A stretch of DNA of 64,000 bases from a virus (lineage: Duplodnaviria; Caudoviricetes). The stretch is from positions 67,213 to 131,212 of the IMG/VR virus record IMGVR_UViG_3300044846_003114. The stretch is one strand, 5' to 3'. Made by a program: the position numbers and the translations under genes. Positions 12,167 through 60,281 of this stretch are shown here, in pieces. Positions within the stretch are counted from its first letter, which is position 1, and each line of letters opens with the position of its first letter. The notes under the pieces are model-generated. The model was not told the origin of the DNA. It saw only the letters and a list, made by a program, of their open reading frames with translations, and searched no databases.

Positions 12167-12270
12167 GGGGGGTTATTACTGGGTAGACCTCCCTATACCC
12201 ATAGGTGGGGGGTCCCCCCTCCCCGTATCCCCCCTTAATTAGGGGTTTTTGGGGGGGTCTAAACAGGGGG
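12167..12270. other. G/C-run palindromic element at the early/late boundary
   Basis: GGGGGG-T-CCCCCC, CCCCT-TAATT-AGGGG and several G5-G7 runs in otherwise AT-rich DNA. Confidence 0.7.
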
Positions 12271-48654: not shown

Positions 48655-50559
48655 ATGAAAGAAGATTTAGTAAACAAAATGAAATTAATGATGTCTTATG
48701 ATATGACTAAAACATTAATTGAAAATAAAGAAATTAATAATTTACTTGAGGATGAAGATGAGGATATTAATGAACAAGGAAGTGCCGCCGCAACATTAAA
48801 GAATCTTGGTAAGGGTAGTAAAACGGCTAAAGCGGTTGCTCAAGATATTGTTGCAACAATGAATAAAGGTGGTAAAGCGGGTGAATCTATATACATAATT
48901 GATGCAACTGGTAGTGCAAAGGCTATAACAAAAGGTGATGAATTATTAGGGGCTCTTAAAGCTGGAACAATCGATGCCGCTAATTTGGCTAGAGTCAACA
49001 AAGGAATATTAAAAAGTAGTGCAGTTACAGATGTTAATTTAATAAGAAACATTGCATCTGATGTTGTTATTGAAGCTAACTTTATAAAAGCATATGGTGA
49101 TGAATTTGTGAAAAGTGAGGAGGGAGTAAGAAATTTATTATTTAAAAATGGTTACACAAAACAATCAATTGATGAAATAGTAGCAAAAATGAAATCAATT
49201 CCAAATTATGGTAAAGACGTTGCAGCATTAGAAAAAGCGGTGGTAAAGGGTAAAGGACAAATAAAAAAATTAAAAAGTAAAAATAAAGATCTTCAAAAGA
49301 TTATAGATAACCCCCCAACAACCGTAGAGGCGGCAAAAGGACAATTACAACCAACAATTAGTAATAACATAACAGTCGGTAATATTTCCCAAGGTGCTGC
49401 TGCGGGTACACATGCAGAAGCACAAGCGATTAGGGAAATTGCACCTGAAGTTAAGGTGATAGCTCAAGAGTCTAAAGCTATTGTTGAAACAATGAAACCT
49501 TCTAAATGGCAAAAATTCAAAAATATTGCGAGTAGGTTAAAAATGAAATACCTTATCGCTTTGGGAATTGCAGGTGTGGGTGGTTGGTATCTTTGGAAAT
49601 TTTTTAAAGATGGTACAACAAAACCTGGTGATATGTTATTTGGTAAATGTTTAGATGATGTTATTGATGATACCGGAACAACAATTAGAAATACAACGGG
49701 TGGAGATCCAGTAGTACAAGTTACAAAAACAGGAAATTCTGACTATGATAGTAAAGGTGGTTTATGGTTCTACAATAATGGTAGAGTATTCATAAAAGAC
49801 CAATCAAAAAGAGGTAGATGGTCTTGTAAAGGTACACAAACAGTAGTTGCAGAACAAGACGGTAATCCAAATACAGGTATTGGTAACATTAATATTGCTT
49901 GGGATGGTGAAGCTGCACCTGTCGATAATGGTGGAGGTTCTGGAAGTGGAGGTTCTGGAAGTTCAAATCCAAACTATCAAGATTGTTCAACAAAAGATTT
50001 TCCATTTGAATTTGGATGTATCGCACCAAAAATTGCGGAAATACAAAAATGTTTAGGTATAACACCACAAAAAGGTTATTTTGGTCCTAAAACTAAAAAA
50101 GGTTTAGAGGATTTACAATATAATTTATCTGGTGGTATTACCAAAGAAACATATGATAAGATTATTTCAGCTTGTAATCCAGTAACGGGATCTACAACAG
50201 GTACAACCACGGGTTCTACAACAGGTTCTACAGCTTCGGTAACAGGTACAACTACGGGTTCTACAACTGGTAACACAACAACGACAACAGCACCTATAAC
50301 ACCTCCAGCAGTACCTGATGAACCTGTGTTCGATAGAAATAGATTACAAGAATTATTAGCAAGTAAAAATTTAGTCAAGAAACGTAAAGGTGTTATTGTT
50401 AAATGGATAGGTCCTGAATTAGAAGGTAACGACTACTACATCTTAGACAAATATTTGATAGATAAGGGTTACATTCAAAAGAGACAAAGAGAAACTGGTG
50501 ACAGAGATGATGAAGATGTAACGATGAAATATAAGTGGAAATTACAAGGAGAAGAATAA
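48655..50559 (+). CDS. probable virion protein with TM segment, PG-binding-like motif and Thr/Gly linker
   Basis: IQKCLG....GYFGPKT; GSTTGTTT repeats. Confidence 0.7.
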   Translation: MKEDLVNKMKLMMSYDMTKTLIENKEINNLLEDEDEDINEQGSAAATLKNLGKGSKTAKAVAQDIVATMNKGGKAGESIYIIDATGSAKAITKGDELLGALKAGTIDAANLARVNKGILKSSAVTDVNLIRNIASDVVIEANFIKAYGDEFVKSEEGVRNLLFKNGYTKQSIDEIVAKMKSIPNYGKDVAALEKAVVKGKGQIKKLKSKNKDLQKIIDNPPTTVEAAKGQLQPTISNNITVGNISQGAAAGTHAEAQAIREIAPEVKVIAQESKAIVETMKPSKWQKFKNIASRLKMKYLIALGIAGVGGWYLWKFFKDGTTKPGDMLFGKCLDDVIDDTGTTIRNTTGGDPVVQVTKTGNSDYDSKGGLWFYNNGRVFIKDQSKRGRWSCKGTQTVVAEQDGNPNTGIGNINIAWDGEAAPVDNGGGSGSGGSGSSNPNYQDCSTKDFPFEFGCIAPKIAEIQKCLGITPQKGYFGPKTKKGLEDLQYNLSGGITKETYDKIISACNPVTGSTTGTTTGSTTGSTASVTGTTTGSTTGNTTTTTAPITPPAVPDEPVFDRNRLQELLASKNLVKKRKGVIVKWIGPELEGNDYYILDKYLIDKGYIQKRQRETGDRDDEDVTMKYKWKLQGEE

Positions 50560-50560
50560 T

Positions 50561-51205
50561 ATGAAAGACATTAAAAAAATTGTAAGAGAAAACCTCTCAA
50601 AGAAGCATTCTATAAACGAATCCTTTGAGAGGATTTTCCTTAATGAAAATGACGAGGATAAATTTGGTTTAACCATACAATATTTGGGTAAATTGATTGA
50701 TGAGGGATATGACAATGAACAAATAGAAAATGTAGTAAATGAACAATTTGATTGGTTAAAAAAATTATTTACTCCGGATAAACAAAACCCAAAAGATACT
50801 TCTACAAGAAGTGGTATTTTAGATAAAGTAGGTGGTGGAGCTATTTCACAATTTAAAGAATATGCAATAACAACATTATTAAACTTAATAGGGTTTAAAG
50901 GTCCATTAGTGAGTGCGATGGCAACCGCAATGAGTGAAATGACATTAAGTGATTTAATAGCTGTCTTTAGAGATAAACAAAGTTGTTCATATCACGGTAG
51001 TACCGTTGCTGATGCATTATCCGAATCATTAGTGGTGTATATTATTTCATCAAGTACTGAAGAAGATTCAATGGCCGCAAATTTCTTAAGAAATACTGTA
51101 TTTGAATATATAAAATCAAGTCAGTTTGGTGAGATGTTGGCTAATGCTGTTTGTAATGTTGCATACAAAACAAAATCAACAATTATATCAAACATTAACC
51201 AATAA
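50561..51205 (+). CDS. hypothetical protein
   Basis: 214-aa ORF in operon. Confidence 0.7.
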   Translation: MKDIKKIVRENLSKKHSINESFERIFLNENDEDKFGLTIQYLGKLIDEGYDNEQIENVVNEQFDWLKKLFTPDKQNPKDTSTRSGILDKVGGGAISQFKEYAITTLLNLIGFKGPLVSAMATAMSEMTLSDLIAVFRDKQSCSYHGSTVADALSESLVVYIISSSTEEDSMAANFLRNTVFEYIKSSQFGEMLANAVCNVAYKTKSTIISNINQ

Positions 51206-51220
51206 TAAGATATTTATAAG

Positions 51221-51315
51221 TAGAGTTTAATCGGTTTGGTCGCCATTAAACAATAACTTATCTAAACGAAAAGGAGGTGTTTCAAATCTCGACAAAGGGT
51301 CTTCGGACCTTTTGT
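51221..51315 (+). ncRNA. candidate ~95-nt sRNA with 15-nt complementarity to the Bacteroidota 16S rRNA 3' end
   Basis: TATTTATA at 51211, GTTTAAT/ATTAAAC stem, AAAGGAGGTGTTTCA at 51270-51284, UUCG terminator hairpin, no start codon downstream. Confidence 0.5.
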
Positions 51316-51362
51316 TCGTTTATATAGGTACCAAATAAAAAACCCATCCGAAGATGGGTTTA

Positions 51363-51772
51363 TGGTGGAGGTGACGGGACTCGAACCCGTGTCTTTCCTG
51401 TTCAACAATAAATGACTACACGTTTATTCTGTTAGTTCACAACAGACAAATATTTGGTTCCTATTTTGACATCGTTACCAACAACTGTGTCGAGTTCACT
51501 TTTGTTACGGTAGCCCTCTGAACGAGACCGTTTGTTTCTTTTTGGGTAGAAACCACACCTTGAGTACTTCTGTTCCTAGGTTATATGTACGTCGACCCGA
51601 TTGTAGTTTCGCCTTAGGCTACTGCTACGTTAGAAGTTGCAAGAATACCTGCTACTTCCATGTTGTTGTAAACGTTGCCGTCTAAAATTTTCCACCGTAG
51701 ATTTAAGTCATAGATGAAGTCTGACTACGTGCCACTTACCCCTGATACCTGAAATCAATGCCAGGCACCCCC
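51363..51772 (-). ncRNA. ssrA: tmRNA
   Basis: 5' GGGGGTG / CACCTCC-ACCA acceptor with G3:U70, T-arm GGGTTCGAGTCCC, tag frame 51679-51614 encoding GNVYNNMEVAGILATSNVAVA*. Confidence 0.92.
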
Positions 51773-51856
51773 ATATTTTAAAGAACTTATACAAATGTAG
51801 ATGAAAAAGGGTTAAAAAACAAATTTTAACCCTTAAATTCCTATATGTGTAATTAT

Positions 51857-52159
51857 TTATTTCTTAGCAGATGGTTTTCTTCCTTTACGAGCTTGGTTCC
51901 CCTTAGTCGCGGTTACAACATCCTTAGATTGTTTAACAACTTTTTTTGCTGCTTCAACAACATCTTTAGATTCCTCAACCACTCTTTTTGCTCTTTCTTT
52001 AACTACTTTAGCAACTTCCTTAACTTCCGCTAATTTTTCTTCAACTGCGTCAGGAATGTTATTACCATCCTTGTCTTCTATTTTACCTGTTTTCATTAGG
52101 AAAAATACTACAGCTCCAGCCACAACCAAAGCCAATAAAATTAAAAGTACTGTCATCAT
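51857..52159 (-). CDS. membrane-anchored basic protein
   Basis: N-terminal TM helix, DKDGNNIPD, K/V/E repeats. Confidence 0.7.
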   Translation of the reverse strand: MMTVLLILLALVVAGAVVFFLMKTGKIEDKDGNNIPDAVEEKLAEVKEVAKVVKERAKRVVEESKDVVEAAKKVVKQSKDVVTATKGNQARKGRKPSAKK

Positions 52160-52201
52160 AATTGTTTGTTTTATATATAAATATCCGTTATTGTACTAAA
52201 A

Positions 52202-53621: not shown

Positions 53622-53756
53622 AATATCAAATATAAGTAAAATTTATTATAATGCAAAAAAAAAGTCAGAATAAATCTGACTAATCTTTTTGGGCCGAACG
53701 GTTTTAAAACGTTCCAATTCCACCACTTTGTTTTACTAAACAAAGAAAAAAAAAAC

Positions 53757-54553
53757 ACTGAGAATACATGTTTTAACAATTGACTTAGGGACATTATTTG
53801 ATTCTTCCCTTTTCCACTACCTTTTGAGTAGTACCAATCAGCGGCGGTCAATTAGATTAACCAATCCTTAAGTCGTTATATACTCTTTTAATACTCATTA
53901 CTCATCAAAGATGCCTCCCTGATTCAACCTTGCGGGTTTAGAGAACTTTTTTAAAAATCACATTGGGCTTGAGACCCTTTGTGGCCGTGAACCCCTCACG
54001 ACTATGTAGCCACCTGTCTACAACGACTGACGAACACTTTTTCTTGTTATGTTTAAGTTGTTAAACCGTAATTAACAAAATTTAGTTTCCGAATTTGGGA
54101 AAGTAGTGGTTCGTCGACCAGCCAAGCCACCTTTTGAGCGACTCGATACTAAACTACTCTCTGTAACATCCCTGCTACCATATTTTTGGACCCCTTCAAA
54201 ACTAAACTCTTGGTAGAGTTTAATAAAGGATGATAACGACACCACTCGTACTTCACCATACCTTTCGGTTTTAAGATTCCCATCATATTGAATCACGCAA
54301 TTGTAAAGTTGGATAACGATACTTCTCACAATAACTCTATGGATTATTCTTATTGGTGTTCCCACCTCAACCAAACAACTCGGATTGCTTGGTCATCAAA
54401 CCACTTTCCCTAAAGTGTTACCCTCAGTACTTAAGGTTCAACGATACTCCACTTGCCTACTCGAGTTCCATTTCTGAAACCGCAACTTACCCCAACCAAG
54501 GGTTTGTCACTTTATCCCACTTTCATGGTTTATTTTGTTGACCATAGGCGGCC
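53757..54553 (-). ncRNA. ~800-nt large structured RNA, GOLLD-like
   Basis: no convincing ORF; GC-richer than flanks; many hairpins (ACC GAAA GGT, AACC CGCAA GGTT, CTAC TCAAAAG GTAG); own promoter (54594) and boxA-like site; terminator at ~53655-53681; next to tRNA cluster. Confidence 0.6.
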
Positions 54554-55855: not shown

Positions 55856-56047
55856 AAATAACACCCTTTTATCAGCCGAAGCCTCACATAACCTTAGTGT
55901 GGAACCACCGGTAGGTGTCATGAATGATTACCATTGAGAATGTAGATTTTCACTAACTCGATTTAGCGGTCTCTTTGATAATTTTTTGATGGATGAAAAA
56001 CATCTATTTTTCTTGTGGATTTCCATCGGAATCCCATAACTTAAAAG

Positions 56048-56121
56048 TGGACCAGATAGGAATCGAACCTATTACCTTCACATTATGAGTGTGCCGCTCT
56101 AACCGAGTGAGCTACAAGTCC
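56048..56121 (-). tRNA. tRNA-Ile2/Met (CAT)
   Basis: cloverleaf, loop CTCATAA, A73. Confidence 0.85.
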
Positions 56122-56131
56122 AAAATTCACG

Positions 56132-56205
56132 TGATCCCGTTTGGATTCGAACCAAAGACCCACATCTTAGAAGGATGTTGCTCTATCCAACTGAGCTACG
56201 GAACC
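56132..56205 (-). tRNA. tRNA-Arg (TCT)
   Basis: ACATC-CTTCTAA-GATGT. Confidence 0.92.
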
Positions 56206-56326
56206 AAAGTAATGTAATGTCTGTACGGTTTGTATCTAATCAGCACCTTTGTACATGCTTCAAAAGTTTCCATTTCATACGTAGCGTCCGTTCCGTCACT
56301 CATTTCTGAGTCATTACACTAAAATT

Positions 56327-56761
56327 TTATTTAATGTTTTTTGCACGATATGTATCTGTTTGTGAATGACAATTTGGACATAACATTCTCAAGTTTTCTA
56401 ACTTATGATTTGTTCGATTTCCATCAATATGGTCTAATTCCATATTTATTTTTTTACCATTCCATTCTTCAATGTCACATACTGAACATTTATTTTCAAT
56501 TATTTTTTCTTTTAATAATCTGTTTTTTAATTTGAATGTTTGAAAATGAGGGTGTTTACCATCCAATATTTCCTGTAAATCAATTTTAGGTGGGACAATT
56601 TTATTTATTCCTTTCCCCGATTGATTTGTGTTGTAACAATCAAATTTAATTGCATACTTTTTAAAAGTATTAAAATGTAATTCTAATTTAACTGCGGCAT
56701 CTGCCATAGAATTAGAATTTTGACACATTTCTCTAAAATGTTTTTCATCTATTTGTTTCAT
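56327..56761 (-). CDS. HNH homing endonuclease within tRNA cluster
   Basis: CSVC...ELDHIDGNRTNHKLENLRMLCPNCHSQT. Confidence 0.9.
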   Translation of the reverse strand: MKQIDEKHFREMCQNSNSMADAAVKLELHFNTFKKYAIKFDCYNTNQSGKGINKIVPPKIDLQEILDGKHPHFQTFKLKNRLLKEKIIENKCSVCDIEEWNGKKINMELDHIDGNRTNHKLENLRMLCPNCHSQTDTYRAKNIK

Positions 56762-56814
56762 ATTAATAAATATCAGACAAATATGAAAAACACTCCGAAG
56801 TGTCTATTTTTTTG

Positions 56815-56899
56815 TACTTCCGACCAGAATCGAACTGGTACGAACTTTCAGTTCATAGCATTTTAAGTGCTACGTGTCTACCAATTCCACCACGGAAGC
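56815..56899 (-). tRNA. tRNA-Leu (TAA)
   Basis: TAGCA-CTTAAAA-TGCTA, long variable arm. Confidence 0.92.
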
Positions 56900-57017
56900 A
56901 TTTTGTTTTTCCAATACATCAAAGAACCATAATTCAAATATAATAAAAAAAAATGATATAAAAAAACCCCGAACAATTTTTTTAGTTTGTTCAGGGTTCT
57001 AACTTAACTAAAAATTT

Positions 57018-57467
57018 TTATTTTACTTTATATGATAACCCAAGTCCTAATGTAAAATCACTACCAACTAAATTACCAATTGTCCATAAATTTATAACAG
57101 TACTTGGTCTTAGTGGATTATACATTATAAGAAAATTTGGTTTGTTACCATTAAGTGTCGGTTGTAATCCAAATCCAACAATGGCCTTGTCTTCTTTTAC
57201 TTGTCTAAGAACACCGAACTTCATATTATCAGATAGATTTCCTGTGTTGGTATTGACACCAGGAGGAATTGATATACCTCCATTTGGGGTTTTCAATTCA
57301 CCGTATGGAAGACCTGCATAAAATCCCCAACCTTTTTTCATAAAACCACCCGTTATATAACCATCTGATGGACCACCTTTTCGAGTGGCGGTTATAAACC
57401 ACTCTTGTCCATTTGCTACGACTTCTACTCCCAAAAGTAACGTTAGCACTAAAAAAATTTTTTTCAT
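57018..57467 (-). CDS. secreted/outer-membrane beta-strand protein
   Basis: signal peptide; C-terminal LGLGLSYKVK. Confidence 0.65.
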   Translation of the reverse strand: MKKIFLVLTLLLGVEVVANGQEWFITATRKGGPSDGYITGGFMKKGWGFYAGLPYGELKTPNGGISIPPGVNTNTGNLSDNMKFGVLRQVKEDKAIVGFGLQPTLNGNKPNFLIMYNPLRPSTVINLWTIGNLVGSDFTLGLGLSYKVK

Positions 57468-57766
57468 TTTTTTGATTTGGACAAGGAGTCTTCCGTTGCC
57501 CATTTTTCTTTTAACTTTGCTACCTTCTCAATCTTTACAATTTTACCATTTAATTTGGTAATCTCGTCCGCGATTTCTTTGGTTTTGACGGCCCTGCTAG
57601 CGAAATTCTCATCTGTTACTTCAACCCATTCAATCTTCCTTTCAAGAGATTTAATCTCTTTTTTTATTTGATTGACTGACTTTCTTTCGTCTGAAAGACT
57701 TGGGTCGATAGATGATGTTAATGTATTAAAAAATAACATTAACGATAGTGTGATTTTATCTATCAT
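57464..57766 (-). CDS. coiled-coil hypothetical protein
   Basis: TATTTATA 4 nt upstream. Confidence 0.65.
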   Translation of the reverse strand: MIDKITLSLMLFFNTLTSSIDPSLSDERKSVNQIKKEIKSLERKIEWVEVTDENFASRAVKTKEIADEITKLNGKIVKIEKVAKLKEKWATEDSLSKSKK

Positions 57767-57844
57767 ATATTATAAATATTAATAATATGATAAATATACA
57801 GAATAAAATATTGGAAATCAATATCTTAATATAAAAAAATATTG

Positions 57845-57916
57845 TACCCCCGACGGGATTCGAACCCGTATTACATCCGTGAAAGGGATGTGACCTAACC
57901 CTTAGTCGACAGGGGC
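57845..57916 (-). tRNA. tRNA-Glu (TTC)
   Basis: CATCC-CTTTCAC-GGATG. Confidence 0.92.
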
Positions 57917-58012
57917 AAATAGGAACTAACATTGCTATCAGGGTTTAAATGGTTCACAGATAAATCTGGAATCACCACCTACTGGTTTTACAGTATCTTA
58001 GTTAATTCTTTG

Positions 58013-58098
58013 CGGAAGGAGTAGGATTCGAACCCACGGTACCTTTCAGTACTTCGGTTTTCAAGACCGACGCGATAGACCAACTCTGCCATCCTTCC
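58013..58098 (-). tRNA. tRNA-Ser (TGA)
   Basis: TCGGT-CTTGAAA-ACCGA, long variable arm. Confidence 0.92.
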
Positions 58099-58106
58099 AA
58101 TATTTG

Positions 58107-58180
58107 CGGACTGTACGGGACTCGAACCCGTGAACTCCACCGTGACAGGGTGGCATGATAACCAACTTCACCAACAATCC
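58107..58180 (-). tRNA. tRNA-Asp (GTC)
   Basis: CCACC-CTGTCAC-GGTGG. Confidence 0.92.
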
Positions 58181-58188
58181 AATATTCT

Positions 58189-58569
58189 TTAATACTTTAC
58201 GTAATCTTTTACCTCCCTAATTTCTGAATTAGTAACCATATTAATTTCATTCTTCAACCTAAACCTTTCGTCGTTTGTAAAATATACTTTTCTAGCTAAT
58301 TCAATAAAATCATCATTGAATTTTTTTTCTTTTTCCATAACTCTTAAATTATCTTCAATATCCCACAAGTTTGTGTTGACTAAAATTAGTTTATCATAAA
58401 TTAATTCTACTTCAGGGTTATTAAAATAACTCAAAGAAAAGTTATATAGTAATTCAAATTCTTTATTGATTAAAATTAACTTTTCCTCATCAAGTACTTT
58501 TGTTTTTTTAACTTGAAGAATTGAAAGTTTATCAATCATTTCTCCAATACTAACAGGAATCGATATCAT
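58189..58569 (-). CDS. DUF6165-like protein
   Basis: PVSIGE.IDKLSIL.VK...N..LWDIED..R...F.ELARKVY.TNDERF..K..IN....S.I.EVK.Y. Confidence 0.75.
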   Translation of the reverse strand: MISIPVSIGEMIDKLSILQVKKTKVLDEEKLILINKEFELLYNFSLSYFNNPEVELIYDKLILVNTNLWDIEDNLRVMEKEKKFNDDFIELARKVYFTNDERFRLKNEINMVTNSEIREVKDYVKY

Positions 58570-58613
58570 ACTTATTTTGTTATTATAAGATTTTTCTTAG
58601 TTGTCACTTGTTG

Positions 58614-58686
58614 AGCCCAAAGTCAGACTCGAACTGACGACCTGCTGATTACAAATCAGCTGCTCTACCAACTGAGCTATTCGGGC
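58614..58686 (-). tRNA. tRNA-Thr (TGT)
   Basis: GCTGA-TTTGTAA-TCAGC. Confidence 0.92.
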
Positions 58687-58751
58687 TTGTTTCTTTCACA
58701 AAGATAATAAATATATATGAATATACAAAATTATTTGTAAAAATATTTTAG

Positions 58752-58822
58752 TTGCGGGGCCGGTAGTCGAAACCGGAAAAAGACACAGCTTATGAGACTG
58801 GTCGGGTACCCTCCTCCCCGCA
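58752..58822 (-). tRNA. degenerate initiator-like tRNA-Met (CAT)
   Basis: TGCGGGG/CCCCGCA acceptor, CTCATAA loop, shrunken D-arm and atypical T-loop. Confidence 0.6.
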
Positions 58823-58883
58823 ATAATAACATTTTTTTGCTCACTAACATTTTTTTTGTTAGTGTACATTTTTTTTGTTAGTG

Positions 58884-58954
58884 TTGTCCCTCGTGGATTC
58901 GAACCACAACTAGATGGACCAAAACCACCTGTACTACCGTTATACTAAAGGACA
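58884..58954 (-). tRNA. tRNA-Gln (TTG)
   Basis: GGTGG-TTTTGGT-CCATC. Confidence 0.9.
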
Positions 58955-58959
58955 ATATG

Positions 58960-59039
58960 TACCCAAGGTCGGACTCGAACCGACACGCCTTTCGACACGG
59001 TTTCTAAGACCGCTGTGTATACCATTCCACCACTCGGGT
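58960..59039 (-). tRNA. tRNA-Leu (TAG)
   Basis: GCGGT-CTTAGAA-ACCGT. Confidence 0.92.
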
Positions 59040-59046
59040 ATTATTG

Positions 59047-59118
59047 CACGCATGTAAGGACTCGAACCTTCATCTTCGGTTTTGGAGACCGAAATTCTAC
59101 CAATTGAACTACACACGC
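59047..59118 (-). tRNA. tRNA-Trp (CCA)
   Basis: TCGGT-CTCCAAA-ACCGA. Confidence 0.9.
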
Positions 59119-59124
59119 GTTTTG

Positions 59125-59196
59125 CGTTGATGATAGGACTCGAACCTATAATCGTTCGGTTAACAGCCGAAAGCTTCACCATTAAGCTACATCAAC
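59125..59196 (-). tRNA. tRNA-Asn (GTT)
   Basis: TTCGG-CTGTTAA-CCGAA. Confidence 0.92.
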
Positions 59197-59201
59197 AACT
59201 G

Positions 59202-59276
59202 TAGGGTAAAGAGGACTCGAACCTCCATGATACCTTGCTCCCAAAGCAAGTGACTTAGCCATTAGTCCATTACCCT
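59202..59276 (-). tRNA. tRNA-Pro (TGG)
   Basis: CTTGC-TTTGGGA-GCAAG. Confidence 0.9.
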
Positions 59277-59442: not shown

Positions 59443-59627
59443 TGAATTTAGTTTTATCTTTTTCTCTTACAAAGATAACAATAAATATCTATATAATCAA
59501 GAAAAGTTAATAAAGATTTTTTTTGATTAGTTGCCTGAACGTGATATTTATAAGTGACAAATAAAAAATTATCTCTCTCCTGGCCTTTTTCATATGAAAA
59601 TTGCGGGAGCATTTTAAAAAATTTCAT

Positions 59628-60281
59628 ATGGAAAGAATTAGAACATTATCTCTTAATTTGGGCAATAGATTAGCTCAAGCATTTTTTGTATTAGTTGGGG
59701 TTTGGATTGTATTTGCCCTATGTTTTCAACTATTCTTTGTTTTTTTAGAATTTTCCGGTAGACAAGAAACTGCTACCAAGGTATCAAATTGGATTATGTG
59801 GAGGATTGACGGGACATTCAAAAACTCCCCAGAAAACATTTGGTACGATGCTGATGACCATATTTGGGTTGAAAGTGTAACAAATCAGGTTAAGATTGGT
59901 AAATTGGCTGGTAACAGAAATTTAGCATTTGGAGTTAAAAACATTTTAGAGGAATTTTTACAAGAAAAGGGTTATGATTTATCAGCATCATCTCCATACA
60001 AGTTACAAGTGCAAATTGTTTATTTAGATGTTCTTACAACAAAGAAGAACATATCTGTTTTCCATTCTAATGAGGAAGAGGTGGTTATTAGATTGAAGGG
60101 AATATTGACAAAAGACGGTAAAAAGGAAAAGGAACTTATTGTTGAGGAGTCATCGTCTGAAGTATCGATGTCTACTTTAATTGTTGATGAAGGAGGTACA
60201 TTTAATCAAACTTCTTTAAGTAACGCACTCAAAAAGGCTAGTGAAAAACTAATAAATAAATTAATGGATAAAAATAAATAA
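59628..60281 (+). CDS. membrane-anchored hypothetical protein (CsgG/LptE-like fold possible)
   Basis: N-terminal TM helix; FGVKNILEE.L..KGY...F....S.ALKKA. Confidence 0.65.
   Translation: MERIRTLSLNLGNRLAQAFFVLVGVWIVFALCFQLFFVFLEFSGRQETATKVSNWIMWRIDGTFKNSPENIWYDADDHIWVESVTNQVKIGKLAGNRNLAFGVKNILEEFLQEKGYDLSASSPYKLQVQIVYLDVLTTKKNISVFHSNEEEVVIRLKGILTKDGKKEKELIVEESSSEVSMSTLIVDEGGTFNQTSLSNALKKASEKLINKLMDKNK

Follow-up and report, generated by a model that had tools for sequence, protein, structure and literature searches.

A candidate non-coding RNA of giant freshwater Bacteroidota phages that probably pairs with the host 16S rRNA tail

Introduction

Between two convergent genes of a phage genome lies an extended Shine-Dalgarno (SD) sequence that runs directly into a transcription terminator, and the question raised by this locus is what an SD that starts no protein could do in an infected cell. 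The ribosomes of Bacteroidia are described as burying the 3' tail of the 16S rRNA under the proteins bS21, bS18 and bS6 (PMC7797042, PMC9976891). According to the second of these papers, rpsU alone has an obvious SD in Flavobacterium johnsoniae, ribosomes that lack bS21 need an extended SD for initiation, and the exposed tail of bS21-lacking 30S subunits is used to translate rpsU, which restores bS21; its authors speculate that phages encoding bS21 must cope with this autoregulation (PMC9976891). The present analysis concerns the anatomy of the phage element, its conservation in related phages, its fit to the 16S tail, and the readings that these features support.

Sequence data and retrieval of relatives

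The window, that is the whole stretch of DNA analysed, makes up the right-hand end (64 kb) of an IMG/VR virus record of 131,212 bp, which has 33% G+C and a CheckV completeness of 39%. Relatives were fetched through the protein of the upstream neighbour gene, a procedure blind to the RNA, which gave 25 sources with the window counted; some of these loci are one contig under two collection names, and the sources comprise 14 distinct sequences. Viral contigs were also scanned with a pattern that includes the SD, which was found at at least 116 loci; the full layout together with the promoter-like motif is seen in 63 of the matches listed, and one further copy (L236) is truncated. A pattern for the 5' half that does not require the SD was found at at least 115 loci, and 50 of the matches listed have the motif. 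The family set used for alignment, pairing and counts of SD forms consists of 54 distinct sequences among the matches listed. Net binding energies, which allow for the cost of unfolding each RNA's own structure, were predicted for pairing with a 15-nt 16S tail.

Organization of the locus

The element fills a convergent gap between the 214-aa ORF on the + strand and a tmRNA gene on the - strand (Table 1). No PHROG or Pfam family was matched by the 214-aa protein, and no + strand gene lies downstream of the element. The initial annotation had described a small RNA-like element without an ORF, in which the SD is preceded by a hairpin and followed by a UUCG terminator with no start codon between, and this description proved exact.

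Table 1 Features of the RNA element and its surroundings (positions in the window)
Feature	Position	Strand	Remarks
214-aa ORF, upstream neighbour	50561..51205	+	Function unassigned; synteny anchor for relatives; 44 homologues
Promoter-like motif GATATTTATA	51209..51218	+	Begins 3 nt past the stop codon of the 214-aa ORF
5' hairpin P1	51225..51251	+	Predicted fold; 7+3 base pairs, bulged C
Invariant UUUGGUC	51235..51241	+	Covers the P1 loop and the last stem U
A/U-rich linker, single-stranded	51252..51269	+	(G)AUAA right after P1, AAACGA just 5' of the SD
Extended SD, AAAGGAGGTGTTTCA in DNA, AAAGGAGGUGUUUCA in RNA	51270..51284	+	Complement of the 16S 3' tail
Mini-hairpin GAGGU/AUCUC, weak	51274..51290	+	Predicted; masks the SD core in part
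AUC triplet	51286..51288	+	At start-codon distance from the SD
Intrinsic terminator	51291..51322	+	Stem ACAAAGGGUC / GACCUUUUGU, UUCG loop (hairpin 51292-51315), U-rich tail
Terminator of the tmRNA gene	51340..51361	-
Phage tmRNA gene, convergent	51363..51772	-

Although a triplet stands at the distance from the SD at which a start codon would be expected, that triplet is AUC, and within the window element no ATG, GTG or TTG occurs 0-20 nt past GGAGG; one GTG overlaps the SD itself and therefore has no usable start-codon spacing. The sequence AAUCUCG follows AAAGGAGGTGTTTCA directly, ahead of the UUCG-looped hairpin, which terminator prediction lists on the + strand at 51291-51316. The folding energy of the + strand RNA is -35.2 kcal/mol (z = -4.7 versus shuffles). 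The linker is predicted to be unpaired or to form an optional outer helix with 51316-51321 (AAACGA/UCGUUU), which is paired in 77.5% of cases across the family.

Several features would fit an independent small RNA gene, namely a promoter-like motif at conserved spacing, a terminator with a U-run, and G:U pairs that are valid on the + strand only. The element looks like a small RNA gene of the phage, with its own phage-type promoter and terminator and a product of about 95-100 nt, and transcription is predicted to start at about 51222-51224. In four relatives (L118, L131, L132 and L137) other DNA takes the place of the tmRNA gene and the RNA is still kept, so that the RNA is not part of a tmRNA unit. 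This persistence also counted against a minus-strand reading, in which the element would be a mimic of the 16S tail lying 3' of the tmRNA; that reading was rejected on the further grounds that the promoter motif and the U-run face the + strand and that many G:U cells of the helices would become A-C mismatches.

Database comparisons gave no family for the element. A scan of the whole window with Rfam 15 produced no match at this position, and a permissive scan of 51150-51400 returned only rli60, rli59, MicX and IS128 on the + strand, all far below threshold (11-17 bits against cut-offs of 60-100; E-values 0.6-7.3). No match was obtained when 50500-52200 was compared by blastn with a phage collection.

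Promoter-like motif

Across the A/T-rich genome the motif TATTTAT[ACT] is not over-represented (78 sites versus 85.7 simulated). Its spacing to ATG codons is distinctive: there is a sharp peak of 12 sites at which ATG follows after exactly 4 nt, and at 20 sites ATG follows after 2-6 nt, where Markov-1 simulations give 9.7. The motif was found in 53 of the family sequences listed, in most of them 3-5 nt 5' of a conserved GAG/GA, and the 54th (L134) carries it as AATATTTATA. On account of the ATG-spacing peak and the fixed position in the RNA family the motif was taken as a promoter, which would start many phage mRNAs at or near the AUG, and this RNA as well. The neighbours and another 12 proteins, roughly half of which have the motif in front of their genes, were compared with PHROGs and Pfam; this gave no structural clue and no clue to the late timing proposed in the initial annotation.

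Conservation and structure of the RNA family

The initial annotation had proposed conservation of the motif in related phages as a check, and the outcome is positive: the element is present in 22 of the 25 synteny-retrieved sources, all that hold the downstream DNA, and the three sources without it (L133, L138 and L142) end before or inside its site. In three relatives its nucleotide identity exceeds that of the neighbour gene (88% versus 55% in L126, 90% versus 66% in L137, 85% versus 63% in L139), and the neighbour gene of these three has 34-52% amino-acid identity. In the most divergent copy (L125) element and gene are about equally diverged (64% versus 65% identity).

The scan with the 5' half bears on whether the SD was imposed by the search. 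Among its 50 motif-bearing matches listed, 49 show RGGRGGT no further than 45 nt away, and the remaining one reads GGAGGGGUUC; recovery of the SD by a scan on the 5' half alone indicates that the SD is universal in the family and not search-imposed. Every one of the 54 family sequences pairs contiguously with the Bacteroidia 16S tail, by 13 pairs in 35 sequences, 14 in eight, 12 in nine (which reach only to 16S position 1532 or 1531) and 11 in the remaining two. None of the 54 has ATG, GTG or TTG 5-13 nt past the SD, and 52 have AUC(U) 6-9 nt past GGAGG. The linker sequences (G)AUAA and AAACGA form invariant columns of the alignment, and the UUUGGUC of P1 is invariant as well.

In the predicted structure, the 5' hairpin is supported by covariation. 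P1 is paired in 95.1% of cells, and eight of its ten pairs have changes on both sides; the lower terminator stem is 96% paired, its sequence varying among relatives with pairing kept. Over the whole structure the paired share of cells is 92.2% and falls to 45-60% once the partners are slid by 1-3 columns, and the many G:U cells are valid on the + strand only. The mini-hairpin is 99.3% paired, with both strands nearly invariant and no change on both sides, hence no covariation. In the free RNA, GAGGU has a predicted unpaired probability of about zero, with open flanks; since the SD core is predicted to be paired, 16S binding would need strand displacement starting from the open flanks.

These comparisons confirm the element as a conserved putative small RNA gene that did not arise by chance, and its anti-SD complement is, as far as the alignment tells, a universal and selected feature of the RNA family.

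Complementarity to the 16S rRNA tail

A Flavobacterium 16S gene ends in ...GGCTGGAACACCTCCTTTCT. With this end, the 16S tail that the initial annotation had given, and the pairing of 15 nt with one G:U counted from it, are both right. The tail sequence against which pairs were counted is that of Table S1 in PMC9976891, and Flavobacterium 16S genes agree with it. Positions 51270-51282 form 13 contiguous pairs with 16S GAACACCUCCUUU, and 51283-51284 extend the match to 15 nt. By E. coli numbering these last two pairs would invade helix 45, which makes 13 pairs the realistic figure. An rpsU-type extended SD has about 12-13 or more contiguous pairs over 16S 1530/1532-1544, and the window, with 13, belongs to this type as regards pairing; where rpsU would have a start codon at SD spacing and then a bS21 frame, the phage element has a terminator.

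On neither strand of the 131,212-bp record does any other site complement the extended anti-SD in register as well as the element (13 contiguous pairs, duplex -19.3 kcal/mol); the next-best complements have 10 pairs, and most of them lie inside genes. About 0.04 in-register 13-mers per genome are expected by chance, as estimated from base composition, and the conservation in relatives rules out a chance origin of the complement. The phage otherwise avoids SDs, an SD core (GGAG, GAGG or AGGA) being found at -22..-4 in 9 of 170 genes of at least 80 aa versus 8.9% of random 19-mers. Its initiation regions are of the Bacteroidia type, with G at 5-13% over positions -13..-1 and A enriched at -3, -5 and -11..-13. 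A scan of viral contigs for the exact 15-mer was unspecific, yielding at least 112 stretches that are mostly ordinary SDs of unrelated phages; among the matches listed, three are contigs of close relatives.

The predicted net binding of the window RNA is -14.1 kcal/mol and the family median is -15.5 kcal/mol. The corresponding values are -15.0 kcal/mol for the rpsU mRNA of a Flavobacterium metagenome-assembled genome (MAG) and -3.7 +/- 2.1 kcal/mol for shuffled RNA.

Two SD forms and their match to host 16S variants

The family SDs fall into a GGAGGUG form (18 of 54, the window among them), reading ...AAAGGAGGUGUU[C/U], and a GGAGGUA form (36 of 54), reading ...AAAGGAGGUAUUC or GAAAGGAGGUAU.. 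in the RNA. The two forms are exact 13-nt complements of GAACACCUCC.. and GAAUACCUCC.., which have C or U at 16S position 1533. The extended anti-SD of F. johnsoniae is GAACACCTCCTTTCT (McNutt et al. 2023, PMC9976891 Table S1), and the second natural 16S variant, with U at 1533 (GAAUACCUCC..), is that of the genera in Fig. S7 panel B of the same work, including Arachidicoccus, Niabella, Pedobacter and Sphingobacterium. Host rpsU sites split likewise into ..GGAGGUGU.. and ..GGAGGUAU.. and also include GGGGG variants (PMC9976891). A GGGGG variant occurs in three family sequences as well, L125 and L147 among them. The named genera with U1533 are members of Chitinophagales and Sphingobacteriales.

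The base that distinguishes the forms and the UU[C/U] that follows lie in the loop of the mini-hairpin; with the varying bases in a loop, their constraint is explained only by pairing in trans, as a fold within the molecule would not hold them fixed. Covariation with host 16S ends, another check that had been proposed at the outset, is suggested in that the two forms mirror the two 16S variants and the rpsU sites; repeated switching between forms did not emerge from a poorly resolved 14-row tree of the neighbour protein, in which the best tree needs two form changes and the well-supported branches force one.

Among 185,579 species genomes the sole family member found lies on a 7.4-kb contig binned into a MAG with the title Flavobacterium sp.; this member carries the G form. 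The rpsU site of this MAG reads CCTTAACGAGAGGAGGTGTCTATATTATG, and no 16S gene was found in it with a conserved 16S anchor. In the genus of the MAG, GAACACCTCCTTTCT is present in 21 of 41 sampled genomes, with T at the form position in 0 of the 35 matches listed, and the match lay at the 16S 3' end in two of two loci checked. This single case agrees with the prediction but is weak evidence. The suggested link between SD form and host is drawn from the published 16S variants and from this one MAG-binned 7.4-kb contig.

Association with phage-encoded bS21

Whether the phage genome encodes bS21 had also been raised in the initial annotation, and the answer is divided between the window's record and its relatives. 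PF01165 (bS21) is absent from the 131-kb record, which is 39% complete. It is present in all four of the RNA-bearing records whose completeness reaches 70% or more, namely G001 (310 kb, 100% complete), G002 (234 kb, 70%), G004 (324 kb, 97%) and G005 (336 kb, 100%); G003, an RNA-bearing relative of 42 kb and 12% completeness, has none. In these four relatives the bS21 genes lie away from the RNA, and no SD was found upstream of any of them. The bS21 genes of G004 and G005 have the arrangement TATTTAT[AT] + 4 nt + ATG, that of G001 has the motif 17 nt upstream, and that of G002 has no exact motif. In these traits the phages agree with the huge phages of freshwater Bacteroidetes that Chen et al. 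2022 describe as encoding bS21 (PMC9723584); in that paper's main text the words tmRNA, GOLLD, leaderless and noncoding do not occur.

Proposed function and alternatives

It is fairly probable that the RNA acts by pairing with the 16S tail. As to the effect of such pairing, the reading preferred here, tentatively and with slightly less than even confidence, is that the RNA imitates the initiation site of host rpsU but lacks its start codon; it would compete for those 30S subunits whose anti-SD is free and would block the resupply of host bS21. The parts of an rpsU site are present in it (an A/U-rich leader, an extended SD and a codon at P-site distance), a usable start codon is missing, and a stable hairpin stands directly 3' of the rpsU-like site. 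The RNA would pair with the exposed 16S tail of bS21-less 30S subunits and out-compete rpsU mRNA, and host bS21 would then not be replenished; phage bS21, made from an SD-less mRNA that would be leaderless in some relatives and would lie outside the control of the rpsU loop, would replace the host protein. We infer that the RNA is transcribed, binds 30S subunits and affects rpsU. The 30S subunits open to such targeting would be the bS21-free minority only. The initial annotation had proposed a ribosome-binding decoy that either captures 30S subunits with an exposed anti-SD or perturbs rpsU autoregulation, an idea that the comparisons support in part. As ordinary mRNAs of Bacteroidia are translated without use of the anti-SD, its second half, the perturbation of rpsU control, is more specific and has the better support. 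Left without explanation by the rpsU-mimic model are the conserved UUUGGUC of P1, (G)AUAA and AAUCUCG.

A bolder version, which we regard as speculative and on the unlikely side, has the RNA form a helix of 13-14 bp with the 16S tail and thereby pry the tail from the bS21/bS18/bS6 pocket, evict host bS21 and jam rpsU autoregulation while phage bS21 refits the ribosomes, the G/A switch opposite 1533 being a determinant of host range. If the RNA were a host-matched weapon of this kind, the switch would track order, with Flavobacteriales and Cytophagales on one side and Chitinophagales and Sphingobacteriales on the other.

The closest rival, though an unlikely one, retains pairing with the 16S tail and assigns it another purpose: the RNA would pull the tail from its pocket so that phage bS21 exchanges in, or would park or protect 30S subunits, for example against 3'-end exonucleases. 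All of the evidence of anti-SD complementarity fits this rival equally, the RNA and phage bS21 co-occur, and it has been proposed that freeing the tail from its pocket may require an extended SD-antiSD helix (PMC9976891). Intact 30S subunits of F. johnsoniae are reported to bind an SD oligonucleotide only slowly, which speaks against it (PMC7797042), and the present data do not separate it from competition with rpsU.

The mini-hairpin invites a different target, since its strands are nearly invariant and almost always paired. In this rival, which is distinctly unlikely, the GAGGU/AUCUC helix would imitate an SD-antiSD duplex and act as a protein decoy that binds free host or phage bS21, in the manner of P6 of OLE RNA, an SD/ASD mimic bound by bS21 (PMC12054373); that the RNA-bearing phages encode bS21 is in keeping with it. 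The helix has only five pairs, however, one of them G:U, and its 3' strand is AUCUC rather than the anti-SD CCUCC, while both the conserved AAA 5' of the SD, outside the helix, and the loop [G/A]UU[C/U] with its two 16S-matching forms are left unaccounted for.

An ordinary base-pairing small RNA would account for the layout of the molecule, a 5' hairpin, then a single strand, then a terminator, being typical of trans-acting small RNAs. Its G-rich seed would act on CCUCC-like sites of host or phage mRNAs, or the true seed would be UUUGGUC, with the likeness to an SD secondary; the invariance of UUUGGUC and (G)AUAA, otherwise without explanation, favours such a role. Against it, in all 54 sequences the complement of 11-14 nt is in register with the 16S tail, its variants match the 16S variants, and no other such target in a cell comes near the abundance of the 16S rRNA. 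This reading is judged improbable. Finally, a micro-ORF starting at the AUC, an SD left behind by a gene since lost, or a 3' UTR with the terminator of the 214-aa gene are very improbable: the AUC recurs 6-9 nt past GGAGG in nearly the whole family and the element directly follows the upstream stop codon, but the AUC frame, followed by eye in several sequences, crosses the stem of the terminator and varies in length from about 6 codons to more than 30, which leaves no conserved peptide, a remnant would not stay 85-90% identical beside a gene at 55-66%, a conserved promoter-like motif precedes the element in the family, and no + strand gene follows it.

Relation to known systems

The nearest counterpart of the phage RNA is the extended SD of host rpsU, the site of bS21 autoregulation in Flavobacteriales and other Bacteroidia (PMC9976891, PMC7797042), with which it shares a complement of 12-14 nt to the 16S tail in a lineage that is otherwise SD-less, the G/A dimorphism opposite 16S 1533, tolerance of GGGGG and A/U-rich surroundings. 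The predicted net binding of phage RNA and rpsU is similar (values above). Unlike rpsU, the phage-encoded RNA is without AUG or ORF and has AUC at start-codon distance, a conserved 5' hairpin, an immediate terminator and a mini-hairpin that partly masks the SD core.

OLE RNA of Halalkalibacterium halodurans is likewise non-coding and tied to bS21, and the SD-like strand of its P6 is paired internally, whereas it is about 600 nt long, encoded by a host in Bacillota and contains a perfect copy of the anti-SD (PMC12054373). The phage RNA has AUCUC as partner strand in a helix of five pairs, and its complementarity is conserved well beyond that helix.

STAB-SD is an ORF-less SD in the 5' leader of cryIIIA of Bacillus thuringiensis that stabilises the mRNA; like the phage RNA it has an SD without a start codon, and holding a 30S subunit is the proposed manner of action of both. 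STAB-SD works in cis, from the 5' end of a long Firmicute mRNA, in contrast to the phage RNA, which stands alone, is terminated at once and would meet a host that normally hides its anti-SD. By analogy, 6S RNA, a mimic of the open promoter for RNA polymerase, and CsrB/RsmZ, whose SD-like GGA motifs titrate CsrA, are further small RNAs that imitate the natural ligand of a cellular machine and titrate that machine; the RNA described here differs in being phage-encoded, in having one long motif and in its proposed target, an rRNA tail. Sponges of the CsrB/RsmZ type are defined by several GGA or ANGGA motifs in hairpin loops, and the phage RNA has one SD motif and none in the P1 loop.

Conclusions

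Giant freshwater Bacteroidota phages probably carry a non-coding RNA that grips the 16S tail of the host and aids the takeover of translation, a view built here on comparative sequence analysis. No published description of a phage RNA aimed at the anti-SD was found in open PMC papers and bioRxiv, and, if the proposal is true, this would be, to our knowledge, the first viral RNA decoy aimed at a ribosomal RNA tail. Two published hypotheses, the substitution by phage bS21 (PMC9723584) and phage interference with rpsU autoregulation (PMC9976891), are made testable by the RNA. The two SD forms might mark the host order of uncultured huge phages. If true, the proposal would link two puzzles, why Bacteroidia keep a hidden anti-SD and why many aquatic phages carry bS21.

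Conserved elements and genomic neighbourhood of the small RNA

UUUGGUC, at the apex of the small RNA's 5' hairpin, and (G)AUAA, immediately 3' of that hairpin, are both invariant or nearly so in the 54 aligned sequences, and none of the models proposed for this RNA accounts for their conservation. The G-run/C-run palindrome GGGGAGGGGGGACCCC, among the sites tied as second-best complement of the anti-Shine-Dalgarno (10 pairs), is probably just a terminator-like hairpin.

For the phage-encoded tmRNA, ARAGORN gives the tag GNVYNNMEVAGILATSNVAVA in the window and ATSNVAVA in close relatives. Many relatives have a tmRNA in convergent orientation to the small RNA; either the gene was found or its 3' end was recognised by eye. 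At the locus of one relative (L118) a 220-aa ORF is located between the small RNA terminator and the apparent 3' end of the tmRNA, which is no longer called there by ARAGORN. This ORF probably encodes a homing endonuclease, since its N-terminus (..FYIGMHSTS..GYLGSGK..) appears GIY-YIG-like by eye. A full-length GOLLD RNA lies approximately 2 kb from the tmRNA in the window, upstream of an array of 12 tRNA genes.

Coordinates of the features discussed (window positions unless L118 is named)
Feature	Position	Strand	Remarks
(G)ATATTTATA ahead of ATG, examples	12363, 46210, 47535	+	
(G)ATATTTATA ahead of ATG, examples	27928, 13638	-	
GGGGAGGGGGGACCCC palindrome	12208-12224	-	Intergenic
UUUGGUC	51235-51241	+	
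(G)AUAA	51252-51256	+	
tmRNA	51363-51772	-	Rfam, 82.7 bits
GOLLD RNA	53755-54161	-	RF02032, 308 bits, model positions 1-416
tRNA array	56047-59276	-	Met, Arg, Leu x2, Glu, Ser, Asp, Thr, Gln, Trp, Asn, Pro
Second GATATTTATAAG copy and leader	59543-59600	+	
226-aa ORF	59601-60281		
220-aa ORF	L118 3760-4422	-	

Promoter-like motif and possible leaderless mRNAs

GATATTTATAAG occurs a second time, and between this copy and the ATG of the 226-aa ORF stands a leader of approximately 45 nt containing UCUCUCUCCUGGCC; this leader is pyrimidine-rich and differs from the other motif-ATG junctions. Across the whole record, (G)ATATTTATA stands 2-6 nt ahead of an ATG at 20 sites, against 9.7 in simulation, and at 12 sites the distance is exactly 4 nt. 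The same 4-nt arrangement precedes the gene for ribosomal protein bS21 in two relatives (L376 and L377). The frequent occurrence of (G)ATATTTATA exactly 4 nt ahead of ATG suggests that many mRNAs of the phage are leaderless or close to it.
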